40,287 bases of DNA from Candidatus Jordarchaeia archaeon (GTDB lineage: Archaea; Asgardarchaeota; Jordiarchaeia; Jordiarchaeales; Jordiarchaeaceae), in the NCBI GenBank assembly GCA_029856435.1, contig JAHQXB010000100.1, positions 1 to 40,287 of the forward strand, in the 5' to 3' direction. The notes under the pieces were generated by a model that saw nothing but the letters and a program-made list of their open reading frames with translations, did no database searches and was not told where the DNA came from. A program made the translations under genes and the position numbers. Positions 8,334 through 23,042 of this stretch are shown piece by piece (position 1 is the stretch's first letter; each line of letters starts with the position of its first letter).

Positions 8334-9692
8334 CTAAAAATTTGAGCCCACTTGGAATATTTGATAAGCGCTGTAGGGTTCTCGATCGGTTATCTCTCCA
8401 CACAGGTTGGTGGTCATTTGTTCGTATATTTCCTTCATGTTTTTTGTGTGCCCTAAGACGTAGATTAGTTTTACATAGGCGGTTTCGGGCAACATGTTTT
8501 TGCAAGGAATAACTCCAATTTTAAGGAGGTCTCTTCCCCGCTCATACACGTTCATACCTACGAATCCAAAGAGGCACTGGGAAGTCATGGCTATAGGGAT
8601 ACCTTCCTCCACTGCCCTTTTTAAAGGTTCTATAATTGTTTTGGGGCAGTGTCCCAAACCAGTTCCTGCTAAAACAATTCCATGATAATCTAAGTCTATG
8701 AGTTTATGAATAATGTCGCCATTCATTCCGGGATACGTGTATATTAGCGCCACTCTAGGGTCAAGTTGGGTGTCTAATTTAACTTCGCCTTTCTTTTTTC
8801 TTTTCCGGTAATCCTTTCTAATTATTTTTATTTCATTGTCTTTCACCAGTCCTATGGGAATATCTGCAATTGTGCGAAAAGCATCCCGCCTGCTGGTGTG
8901 CATCTTTCTAACTCGAGTACCTCTATGAATCAAATTATAGTCGTCGCTACTACTCCCATGCATACAGACAACCACTTCAGCTATGTCACTGAACGCAGCC
9001 ACCCTAGCCGCAGAGATTAAGTTTATCGCCGCATCACTTGAGGGGCGGTCACTGCTCCTCTGGCTGCCAACTAGAACTACTGGGACTGGTAAATCCTTTA
9101 ACATAAAGGATAGTGCTGATGAAGTGAAATGCATGGTATCGGTGCCGTGGGGAATGAGGATACCGTCTGCACCCGAGTTTATTTCTTTGGCAGCAGTTTC
9201 CGCAATTTTTATCCATTTGTCTGGTGTCATGTCTTCGGAAAATATTTCGAATAAAAGTTTTGTTTTCAGATTGCAGATTTCTGCAAGTTCGGGAACCGCA
9301 CTAAAAAGTTCTTGTGGAGTAAAAGCGGGAATAACAGCTCCAGTTCTGTAATCAAGTCTACTTGCCACTGTTCCGCCGGTGCCAATTAAAGAGACATTGG
9401 GTTTCTTGGGATCAAATTCCACTTGTATTTCGGGGATAGCGTAAAGGCCTGGCTTGTAGCCTAATTCTTTAATTTTTGTGTCTTCTGTGACTCTCACACC
9501 TATATTGTATCCAGTATCTAGTTTGAGTACTAGGTGCTTATCATCACCCATATCGCTTCTTGGGAGTAGTATCCCTCTATATGTTGCTTCGGGGGTAATT
9601 ACTTCGATTTCGCTCCAAATTCTAACTTTAGCGATCTCAAGTTTTTTCCTAACAAATCCCCAGTATCCTTGCAGCTCCTCCTTCACCGTCAT
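8334..9692 (-). CDS. gatD: Glu-tRNA(Gln) amidotransferase subunit D
   Basis: KLDTGYNIG, TGGTVASRLDY, HGTDTM and GSQRSSDRPSSD motifs; overlaps the gatE stop. Confidence 0.97.
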   Translation of the reverse strand: MTVKEELQGYWGFVRKKLEIAKVRIWSEIEVITPEATYRGILLPRSDMGDDKHLVLKLDTGYNIGVRVTEDTKIKELGYKPGLYAIPEIQVEFDPKKPNVSLIGTGGTVASRLDYRTGAVIPAFTPQELFSAVPELAEICNLKTKLLFEIFSEDMTPDKWIKIAETAAKEINSGADGILIPHGTDTMHFTSSALSFMLKDLPVPVVLVGSQRSSDRPSSDAAINLISAARVAAFSDIAEVVVCMHGSSSDDYNLIHRGTRVRKMHTSRRDAFRTIADIPIGLVKDNEIKIIRKDYRKRKKKGEVKLDTQLDPRVALIYTYPGMNGDIIHKLIDLDYHGIVLAGTGLGHCPKTIIEPLKRAVEEGIPIAMTSQCLFGFVGMNVYERGRDLLKIGVIPCKNMLPETAYVKLIYVLGHTKNMKEIYEQMTTNLCGEITDREPYSAYQIFQVGSNF

Positions 9693-11644
9693 TGTTTTCC
9701 CTCCAATATTTTTGCTATTTTTTTACGAAGAACTTCAGCTACTATTTTTCCATCAATTTTGCCTCTTACCTTTTCCATCACTTTGCCCATCATAGGGCTA
9801 AACGCCCTATCCCCACTTTTTTCTATAAAGTCACGGCTCTCATAGAGCACCTCATCAATTATTTTTTCAAGTTTCTCAACCGTAATGGTTTCCAACCCTA
9901 ATTCTTTAAGGGCGTCACTAACACTAATTGAGGGGGATTTCGCTAGTTCTTGTAGAATGTTTTCCAATGCTTCTTTTGCTATTTTTCCTTCTGAAATAAA
10001 TTTGAAAACATCTTTAATTTTTTCTTCGGAGATATTGTCTGTTTGGAAGCCCTCCCTCTCCAGAGATTTCATAGTTTGAAGCAAGGTTACAACAACAATT
10101 GTTGGATCTATTTTATATTTCTCGACGATGCCCATAAACAATTCCATTTTCCCTGACGCCATCAATTCTTCTACGAACTCTTCATTTATCTTGTACTTTT
10201 CAGCAAGGCGTTTCTGAGCCACCCAAGGATATTCAGGTAACCTCTTACTAATTGCTGCAACCCTTTCCTTTTCTATGACCAATGGGGGAGTATCTGTATC
10301 GGGATATAAACGCGCCCCACCATGCAACTCTCTTAAAAATTCGCTGTTACCATTTTCTAACGCTCTCCTAGTTTCCCTCATTACACCCTTCAGGGCGCCC
10401 TTAGCCCTATCCACAACAGTCTCCAAGGCCTTTTCCGCCATATCCGCATCACCTATAACAATTGCGTAAGCATCTATTTCCCCTAGTGCAAGAAGATTAC
10501 GTATCTGGGAGTTCTCCTCTGCACTGATGTTATATTTGCTGAGGTTTTCATCAGAATGAATGATGCCTTTTAAACCAGTGATTATCATAACTTTCTCTGC
10601 AATTTCTTTTCCAAAACTCTTCCCTGGCTGAATCTCTTTAGATAAAAGTCCCGCGAATTTTGGAAGTTTTACTGCTAATACGATTTCGTTAGCCTTCCTA
10701 TTTTTGATAATATTGCATTTGGTGGAGGCGAAAACCTGGGAAACGTTCTTAAAATCTTTAGAAAAGTCAGTTTCCTTCACACCACGATTCAACAACTGAT
10801 TCTTAATATCAATTAGTGCAAGTTGTCTCAGTACTTCATTCTCAGCCAGTTTAGGTATCCAATCCAATTTTTGTACTCCTTTAATTTCCACACGCTCTCC
10901 ACCCTCTATACTCACATTTAAATCCTGCCTAATGGTTCCAAGCCCCCTCTTAACCTTCCCTGTCGCCCTGAGAAGCATTCCTATCCTGTAAGCTACTTTG
11001 AGAAGCTCTTCTGGATTCTTAATTTCAGGCGCCGTAACAACTTCAACCAGAGGGATGCCTAATCTATCAACCCTGTAATAAACAGTGCTTTGCTCCTCAC
11101 GGATTTTCCTAGCCGCATCCTCCTCTATACAAATAGTGGCTACTCCAACCTTCCCACCATTAATTGGAATATAGCCCTCTGTTCCAATAATTAATGTACG
11201 CTGAAATCCACAAGGAACTGACCCGTCAAGATAATTTTTACGAAGGACATGTAACTCGTCTATAATCTTTGCATTAAACAATAGGGCAATCTCTATACCT
11301 ATATCTATTGCTTCCTGAGATATGCTAAAAGGAGGAGTTTAATGCTTGTATGCATTCTACATACAAGTTTCATCTATCTCGTAAGTACAATTAACATCAT
11401 CATATACTTCATAAACAATTGTACGCCCCTTTTCATACTCAACAAGCATTGCCTCGTCATACTTACCCATCTCGCCCAAAACAGGTCTAAAGAATCTTTT
11501 AACCAGAAACTGTGGTTCATCGGTCTTCAGAACAGGTTTACAGAAGCAAAAAAGTTTGCGACTGGTTAAAAGCTCCTGGTGAATCTCGACTCCGGCCTTG
11601 AATCCCAGTTTATCATAGTCGAGTTGTATTGCGACCACCTCCAT
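9689..11644 (-). CDS. gatE: Glu-tRNA(Gln) amidotransferase subunit E, intron-containing: join(11644..11369, 11338..9689), about 640 aa
   Basis: The two ORF-track pieces (GFKAGVEIHQ...YEIDE and ...RKNYLDGSVPCGFQRT) are in the same frame. Removing 30 nt gives YEIDE-TPPFSISQEAI, matching the GatE DExPP motif. Start is ATG 11644 or ATA 11629. Confidence 0.93.
11339..11368 (-). other. 30-nt BHB/BHL-type mRNA intron in gatE
   Basis: Pre-mRNA GAUG AA^A CUUGUAUG-UAGAAUG-CAUACAAG CAUU AA^A CUCC: 4-bp central helix, two 3-nt AAA bulges, perfect 8-bp inner stem, in-frame UAG and UAA inside. Confidence 0.88.
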
Positions 11645-21991: not shown

Positions 21992-23042
21992 TTATCCCTC
22001 AGTTTCCTCGCTTCTATCATGTTTTTTCCACATAGGAGGGTAGGTTCCCGGCTCCATTAAGACACGGTTTATTTCCACCACAACCCCATGGTTTGAGGCG
22101 TACATTTCTTGACTGCTCATTTTTGCTATTCCCAATGCTACAGCTTCATTTTTAAGCGTGAAGATTGAAACTAGATCACCAGCTTTTATCTCACTCTCTA
22201 GTTTAACTATTCCAGGAGCGGTTAGATTTGCGCCGTGACAAAGAGAATCTACGGCAGAGTCTCGTATAAAAATTTTAGGTATATGCTCCAGTGCATTTTC
22301 CATTGGTTGGATAATTTTTCTAAGGAATGATTCGTCTCCATCTTCCTTCCAGAAATGGTAAGCATCAACGAGGTCGTATAGGTTTGTTATAGTATCTTCT
22401 TTAAAAGGCCCTGTTCGGGTGCGTCTAAGTTCTCTCATGTGGGCGCCACAACCTAAAACCTCACCAATGTCGTGGCAGAGCTTTCTTATGTAGGTGCCGG
22501 CCTCACAACCAACACGCAAGAGCCCATTTCTACCCTCTAATTCATTTAGTTCAATATAATATATTTCCCTAATCCTCACCCTCCTTTTAACCGAGGAGCG
22601 AAGCGGTGGACGTTGATAAATTTGTCCCGCAAACTCGTTTACAACTTCTCTCAATCTACTTTCAGACACATCCCCGTGCAGCCGAATTACACAAACATAC
22701 TCTTTCCCAGCCGGAAGAAGAGCTTGAACTACTTTAGTTGCAGATTCTAAAGCCACAGGAAGCACACCAGTGACTTTGGGATTTCACTGCCCCCTATGCT
22801 TCTGAAGGAAGCTCTAGTGTCCCAGCGTGGCCTGCCTTCTTAACATTTAAGATTTTTTTGACCCAGCTAACCACTTCATGCGAGGTGGGACCCGGAGGCT
22901 TGTCAACATTGACTATCCCGTTTTTTATATAATCTTCTATTTGACGTTCGTTGGGTGGAGTTCCATACTCCGGACTAGTGACCGCGTTAGCCTTCTGGAG
23001 TATCTCTCTTTTCTTGTCGCTGGGTAAAAAACGCTCGACCAT
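21992..23042 (-). CDS. cbf5: H/ACA RNP pseudouridine synthase Cbf5 (TruB family), intron-containing: join(23042..22814, 22782..21992), 339 aa
   Basis: Spliced junction restores [15 protein letters not shown]; [12 protein letters not shown] and [12 protein letters not shown] motifs; C-terminal PUA domain. Confidence 0.95.
22783..22813 (-). other. 31-nt BHB mRNA intron in cbf5
   Basis: GGGA CACU AG^A GCUUCCU-UCAGAAGCAU-AGGGGGC AGUG AA^A UCCC: canonical BHB; frameshifting and contains UAG. Confidence 0.93.

Follow-up and report, generated by a model that had tools for sequence, protein, structure and literature searches.

A probable splicing-endonuclease intron in the gatE coding sequence of a Jordarchaeia archaeon and its relatives

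In archaea, Gln-tRNA(Gln) is made by tRNA-dependent transamidation via GatDE. The question raised by the locus described here is how this route could work when the frame of gatE is broken by two stop codons. The locus lies on a contig of Candidatus Jordarchaeia archaeon (assembly GCA_029856435.1, contig JAHQXB010000100.1, positions 1 to 40,287), and this whole stretch of 40,287 nt is called the window below. We consider it very probable that the 30 nt at 11339-11368, which interrupt gatE, form a relaxed HBh'-type intron for the archaeal splicing endonuclease within the coding sequence. The original prediction had proposed an EndA-type intron in gatE mRNA, in the form of a relaxed bulge-helix-bulge (BHB) or bulge-helix-loop (BHL) motif. 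Frame restoration in 15 genomes, covariation, selection, the alpha- and beta-like EndA proteins and the RtcB ligase support that proposal, the excision itself being the step that we infer.

On the minus strand the gatE frame reads ...NCTYEIDE-TCM*NAYKH*-TPPFSISQ..., with both pieces in one reading frame. The gene had been described as two same-frame open reading frames (ORFs) split by 30 nt containing UAG and UAA, and this description and the coordinates 11339-11368 were verified. The features of the locus are as follows.

11369..11644, minus strand: gatE exon 1, 92 codons, from ATG at 11644 to GAA at 11369.
11339..11368, minus strand: probable gatE intron, 30 nt, with in-frame UAG and UAA, A-CUUGUAUGUA-GAA-UGCAUACAAG-CAUU-AA.
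9689..11338, minus strand: gatE exon 2, 549 codons plus stop, beginning with ACU at 11338.
8334..9692, minus strand: gatD, the intact partner subunit, directly downstream of gatE and overlapping the gatE stop.

The gatE stop codon lies at 9689-9691 on the minus strand, and gatD has Pfam matches to GatD_N, Asparaginase and Asparaginase_C. Exon 1 aligns to residues 1-85 of Methanothermobacter thermautotrophicus GatE (2d6f_C), and the alignment ends at ...EADE. Residue 2 of exon 2 corresponds to residue 87 of the same chain, hence residue 1 of exon 2 corresponds to residue 86. The junction therefore joins the adjacent residues 85/86 of a solved GatE, with no residue doubled or missing. A single Pfam GatB_N domain is split over both exons (positions 2-42 in exon 1 and 47-276 in exon 2) and the insert stands at the DExPP motif of this domain, while exon 2 carries the further Pfam domains GAD and GatB_Yqey.

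These boundaries bear on the idea of a split gene, in which an N-terminal piece of 95 residues and a C-terminal piece of 530-550 residues would be translated separately and assemble into GatE, the hairpin serving as an intercistronic element. Both pieces are indeed conserved and under selection, and public annotation calls them as separate proteins. However, exon 2 does not open with a start codon. The first in-frame ATG, GTG or TTG is a TTG at 11281, 19 codons into the exon, and its use would drop the conserved TPPF. The break also falls inside one Pfam domain, between adjacent residues of the solved protein. In addition, a split gene would leave unexplained both the covarying exon-intron helix and the success of a single cut rule in restoring the frame at many insert lengths, as described below. 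We regard a split gene as very unlikely.

Is this gatE functional and needed? The assembly, of 3.54 Mb and 97.8% complete, holds one gatE, the only other matches being to a GatB-like gene at 25-35% identity, so that a second intact copy, which would have spoken for a pseudogene, does not occur in the genome. No glutaminyl-tRNA synthetase (GlnRS) scored above the NCBIfam cut-off in the assembly, and GatDE is the only expected route to Gln-tRNA(Gln) in the present genome. The ratio of nonsynonymous to synonymous substitutions (dN/dS) of exon 1 against congeners is 0.03-0.05, at dS of 0.6-2, and none of the 11 Jordarchaeia compared has a shortened exon 2, despite saturated synonymous divergence. 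These results agree with the earlier view that a dead gatE beside an intact gatD is unlikely.

They also speak against a pseudogenising insertion, that is, a small mobile element which entered a decaying gatE and left a target-site duplication. Such an event would account for the flanking AAACT direct repeat and for the two in-frame stops of the insert, yet in relatives only AAAC or AAA is left of the repeat, and a duplication of AAACT is not upheld. A decaying pseudogene is excluded because exon 1 is under strong purifying selection, the junction residues 85/86 follow each other without interruption and the GatB_N domain is shared by the exons. With a single gatE and no GlnRS above the cut-off, we give this explanation almost no weight.

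The comparison set consisted of 40 relatives, among them five genomes of the same genus and five from a sister family within the order, which together with the present genome make up the Jordarchaeia considered here. The gatE frame is interrupted at the identical site in 11/11 Jordarchaeia genomes of the two families, whereas most other Asgard families have a continuous gatE of 630-700 residues. We applied one cut rule throughout, namely a cut after nucleotide 2 of each A-rich triplet. A cut between bulge nucleotides 2 and 3 is the rule given for BHB bulges (PMC2738675). This rule restored the frame and the motif ...Y-E-x-D-E-T-P-P-F... in every one of the 11 Jordarchaeia, although their inserts vary in sequence and have lengths of 29, 30, 31 or 35 nt. 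Alignment of gatE from related genomes had been suggested as a check, and it thus gave an interrupted site throughout the Jordarchaeia with the frame restored by a single rule. Likewise, the predicted cut after bulge nucleotide 2 in the present genome gives GAU GAA / ACU, in exact agreement with the end of exon 1 at 11369 and the start of exon 2 at 11338.

In a wider survey, 301 Asgard genomes were sampled for a truncated gatE frame. Two further Asgard groups, families f29 and f13, have a gatE frame broken at or near the DExPP site. Family f29 (G288; L054) carries a 51-nt intron at the same phosphodiester, with the motif GAUG-AAA/CAUC-ACA. Family f13 (three genomes, two of them complete; L029, L032 and L055) has introns of 41, 41 and 35 nt that carry the motif AGGC-AGA/GCCU-AGA and are located 5 nt upstream, after nucleotide 1 of the Asp codon. 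In both families the cut rule restores ...EAD(D/E)EPPH, matching the methanogen structure. Over Jordarchaeia, f13 and f29 together, it restores the frame and DE(T/E)PP in 15/15 genomes, at insert lengths of 29, 30, 31, 35, 35, 41, 41 and 51 nt. Read-through of the insert is excluded because these lengths are often not multiples of 3, as with the inserts of 29, 31 and 35 nt. We also rejected a group I or II self-splicing intron and an intein, as the inserts are only 29-51 nt long, hold stops and often have lengths not divisible by 3.

An assembly or sequencing artefact is a general possibility in metagenome-assembled genomes (MAGs), and nothing more speaks for it here. The insert occurs in at least 11 independently assembled genomes, which include the complete Freyarchaeia-1 chromosome CP147778 (gatE near 1,470,500-1,472,500), reported as long-read-validated (PMC11291895), and two contigs of the Joint Genome Institute (JGI) metagenomes (200 kb and 29 kb) in which the same gatE site is interrupted. 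We therefore set the probability of an artefact, which had been named as a possible refutation, as good as at zero.

How would the insert be recognised? The minimum free energy (MFE) fold of 71 nt around it coincides with the centroid at -13.6 kcal/mol. It consists of GAG/CUC (3 bp), a 3x3 internal loop AUA/AAA, GAUG/CAUU (4 bp), an AAA bulge and a 10-bp stem. The elements of the fold map to the window as follows.

11371..11374, minus strand: 5' strand of helix H, GAUG in exon 1, pairing with CAUU at 11341-11344.
11341..11344, minus strand: 3' strand of helix H, CAUU in the intron, supported by the MFE fold and covariation.
11368..11370, minus strand: AAA bulge of the putative 5' splice site, with the predicted cut between 11369 and 11368; an invariant AAA in the alignment and a 3-nt bulge in the MFE fold.
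11345..11367, minus strand: intron stem-loop h', 10 bp in the present genome, of which 8 bp are conserved among relatives.
11338..11340, minus strand: AAA triplet of the putative 3' splice site, with the predicted cut between 11339 and 11338; in a 3x3 internal or open loop.
11378-11380 with 11335-11337, minus strand: outer helix GAG/CUC, 73% paired, no covariation.

For the covariation test, the alignment of 11 sites was scored against the proposed structure, with 500 shuffles and slid controls. Helix H and the intron stem h' are 97.5% paired across the alignment, and 7/15 pairs have changes on both sides, such as CUUGUAUG/CAUACAAG to CGUACAUG/CAUGUACG and GAUG/CAUU to GACG/CGUC. One doubly changed pair belongs to helix H, and 6/8 conserved pairs of h' are changed on both sides. 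None of the 500 shuffles reached the observed structure score, and the slid controls dropped to 14-49% paired. The shared insert in 11 Jordarchaeia together with the compensatory changes in the stem places the site well beyond chance. By contrast, the outer exon-exon helix shows zero compensatory changes at its 73% pairing.

The conserved parts are only helix H, the 5' bulge and the intron stem. The gatE motif therefore has the BHB-type structure in a relaxed form only, with helix H, a 3-nt 5' bulge and the h' stem conserved; it is a relaxed HBh' (BHL) form, a non-canonical BHB. A canonical hBHBh' reading was rejected, as the outer helix lacks covariation and is absent in 3/10 distinct sequences. 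The fold originally predicted thus holds for the GAUG/CAUU helix, the intron hairpin, the AAA triplets and the relaxed BHL-like form, but the outer helix GAG/CUC is left without support from covariation.

The same elements decide against programmed translational bypassing of the T4 gene 60 type. Here the ribosome would leave the mRNA at the ACU after GAA, slide past the hairpin and land on the ACU after UAA, the mRNA remaining uncut. In the present genome an AAACU direct repeat flanks the insert, and this repeat, together with the stable hairpin and the early stop inside the insert, would suit such a mechanism. However, the take-off and landing codons, ACU/ACU in the present genome, are unmatched in relatives, being ACG/ACU in three genomes (G007, G008 and G009) and AUG/ACG in a fourth (G006), and there is no stop directly after the putative take-off codon. 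Moreover, conservation and covariation fall on the EndA motif, with its 4-bp exon-intron helix and two A-rich triplets of 3 nt, and the excised segment of family f13 starts within a codon. Bypassing is extremely unlikely in our view.

Based on these features, we propose the following course of gatE mRNA splicing. In the pre-mRNA, GAUG of the exon would pair with CAUU of the intron as the central helix of 4 bp. Between this helix and the intron hairpin, the AAA bulge would hold the 5' splice site, and the 3' site would lie in the AAA just past the helix. A heterotetrameric (alpha-beta)2 EndA would cut after nucleotide 2 of each triplet. RtcB would then join GAU GAA to ACU CCU CCU (junction GATGAA|ACACCTCC), releasing the 30-nt intron, probably as a circle. 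The product would be a GatE of 641 residues with an intact ...YEIDETPPF.... Cleavage and ligation would have to precede or outpace translation.

The genome encodes the enzymes that such splicing would call for. It has two EndA paralogues (L039:1178-1753 and L040:1195-1785). One of them is closest to the catalytic alpha subunit (3p1z_B, 3e-45) of the (alpha-beta)2 enzyme from Aeropyrum pernix, and the catalytic residues Tyr/His/Lys are retained in it. Its alignment runs gapless through the Crenarchaea-specific loop (CSL), where the K44 and R46 positions are both occupied by Lys (IRKPKS). The loop lysine of A. pernix EndA confers cleavage of BHL and off-position introns, as shown by mutagenesis and loop grafting (PMC3241643). 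The other paralogue, 31% identical, is without the catalytic His and without the loop, and would fit a structural beta subunit. The host EndA, with its apparent (alpha-beta)2 make-up and specificity loop, is predicted to be able to cut relaxed motifs, for which an (alpha-beta)2 enzyme or an epsilon2 enzyme with such a loop is expected. In addition, there is one gene for the 3'-phosphate RNA ligase RtcB (579 bits).

The splicing load of the lineage is high. For the same clade, published work on complete Freyarchaeia and Atabeyarchaeia genomes found introns in 92-95% of tRNA genes, frequently with more than one per gene and outside the canonical positions (PMC11291895). Because that share of tRNA genes already needs splicing, a dependence of Gln-tRNA synthesis on splicing capacity would add little as a regulatory device, and we found no sign of a regulatory role for the gatE intron. 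The simplest reading is that the lineage, with its very high capacity for splicing, tolerates many tRNA-type introns, that of gatE among them. As a separate observation, ARAGORN finds only 3 tRNA genes in the 3.5-Mb genome, which fits the published tRNA intron load of Freyarchaeia. Standard tRNA finders fail on this genome, and ARAGORN is unusable for describing its tRNA introns.

Is gatE the only protein gene concerned? Two further candidates were found, one in the window and one on another contig of the genome.

22783-22813, minus strand: cbf5 intron, 31 nt, CACU-AGA ... AGUG-AAA, between exons 22814-23042 and 21992-22782.
L043:1547-1576 (= G000:C93), minus strand: rtcB insert, 30 nt, with an in-frame TGA at LPD-AHQGYGFP and the motif CCCG-ACA-CAUG...CAUG-CGGG-AAG.

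In cbf5 the same rule cuts between letters 1 and 2 of the catalytic Asp codon and restores the frame, and this position is exactly that of the crenarchaeal cbf5 intron (PMC2738675). An intron at that position is present in 11/11 Jordarchaeia (27-35 nt, with covarying stems) and in one genome of family f13 (G021, 41 nt), and is absent in most other Asgard families sampled. In rtcB, which is a single gene, the cut rule restores LPDAHQGYG.

The occurrence of gatE introns in three groups suggests either that introns were gained repeatedly where the exon sequence favours them or that an old intron was lost many times. In a quick GatE tree, from a quick search only and with long-branch warnings, the Jordarchaeia form one clade, f13 and f29 stand elsewhere, and intron-less families lie between. 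We tentatively put forward, at a little less than even chances, that the DExPP codons of gatE are a recurrent landing site of tRNA-type introns in Asgard archaea. The introns there (30 nt in the present genome, 51 nt in f29 and 35-41 nt in f13) look unrelated, which would imply repeated and ongoing insertion into mRNA where the exon supplies half of the motif (GAUGAAAC). On this view, splicing of mRNA by proteins alone would be a routine and essential process that takes in cbf5 and rtcB as well. If recurrent insertion holds true, the splicing system must splice the message of its own ligase, in close relatives of eukaryotes. Introns near one gatE site in three lineages offer a concrete system for studying intron gain.

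Several points weigh against splicing of the gatE mRNA. The fold alone is only modestly unusual, with z = -2.37 and 5/200 shuffles equally stable. The 3' site is no clean bulge, as its AAA faces a 3x3 loop or an open strand. With that site unclean and the outer helix unsupported, cleavage would rely on an EndA of broad specificity. The exact spliced junction pattern was absent from JGI metagenome contigs, and no junction-spanning protein above 73% identity was present in a collection of 5.8 billion proteins; both sources are mostly genomic, and these negatives are weak. A genome-wide HBh' scan, which used a frame-shifted splice rule as internal control, gave no overall excess (69 against 81 and 88 for stems of at least 6; 36 against 36 and 33 for A-rich bulges). 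Finally, since the sole rtcB is interrupted, its message would need the ligase in order to mature, if the insert is real, which raises a bootstrapping question.

The other results of these searches were as follows. A gapped junction pattern matched two JGI contigs, both with the 30-nt insert. Near-length proteins matching exon 1 fall in eight clusters, which all end in ...DETCM, DETCR or DETYM at the intron stop, and the exon-1 ORFs of further protein clusters all stop inside the intron. The matches of the HBh' scan are dominated by chance hairpins at gene boundaries, for example at L34e/cmk and ribosomal protein genes in the window. The 28-31-nt class gave 8 matches against 0 and 0 in the controls; its length window is partly post hoc and it is no census. 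Weighing all of this, we hold to the EndA-type intron as the very probable explanation of the gatE insert.

How does this intron compare with known systems? In the searchable literature up to 2025, cbf5 of Crenarchaeota stands as the sole archaeal coding sequence for which a splicing-endonuclease intron has been demonstrated, other protein-gene introns being only 'predicted' (PMC7714728, PMC12397907, PMC2738675). The crenarchaeal cbf5 intron of Desulfurococcales and Sulfolobales (Watanabe 2002, Yoshinari 2006, Yokobori 2009) is, like that of gatE, short and within the coding sequence, with a relaxed BHB at its borders and predicted cuts between bulge nucleotides 2 and 3. Both are linked to a hetero-oligomeric EndA, and the cbf5 intron is conserved over an order-level clade as well (PMC2738675). 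The gatE intron differs in its gene, an essential translation factor, in its phylum, Asgard, and in its place at the DExPP motif. Splicing of cbf5 has been demonstrated with cDNA and by cleavage in vitro, while that of gatE is predicted from sequence. The BHL or HBh' tRNA introns of Thermoproteales and of Freyarchaeia and Atabeyarchaeia (PMC11291895), of the kind cut by A. pernix EndA (PMC3241643), share with it the 4-bp helix, the 3-nt bulge or loop, the hairpin and a similar size. The same enzymes are expected for both, an (alpha-beta)2 EndA with a lysine loop and RtcB. Unlike the tRNA introns, the gatE intron sits in an mRNA host with no tRNA body for positioning, and its removal would serve a reading frame, not a fold. 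Haloferax volcanii HVO_1309 likewise presents an mRNA as substrate of the archaeal splicing endonuclease, but its intron lies in the 5' untranslated region with a canonical BHB and leaves the coding sequence uninterrupted (Schwarz 2020, PMC7714728).

The gatE intron joins the cbf5-type class of pre-mRNA introns, and is of interest for its gene, its lineage and the apparent breadth of the phenomenon. In eukaryotes, HAC1/XBP1 mRNA splicing is also a protein-only cutting and rejoining of a short mRNA intron at stem-loops, with RtcB as the ligase in animals. It differs in that the nuclease is IRE1 and not the tRNA-splicing endonuclease, and in being stress-regulated, whereas no regulation is evident for gatE. 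No report of a gatE intron was found in the searchable literature on gatE, Asgard and Jordarchaeia/Freyarchaeia introns, and to that extent the intron is undescribed, as had been suggested. A conserved intron in the sole gatE would show that archaeal mRNA splicing is no curiosity of cbf5 and that an indispensable translation function depends on it.

The intron also matters in practice. As gatE is split by gene callers, a metabolic reconstruction of these MAGs can wrongly count GatDE as broken. In public records of Jordarchaeales MAGs (P0029 and P0032), gatE exon 1 is entered by itself as a 'hypothetical protein' that is about 98-111 residues long and ends inside the intron, which leaves gatE mis-annotated as split or missing there. 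Five more inserts of 28-30 nt with A-N-A or A-N-R triplets were seen elsewhere in the genome (G000 contigs C24, C136, C35, C151 and C16), where the cut rule joins long open frames, among them ...NDVYAIGG... (C35) and ...FVHICGTHEQ... (C136).

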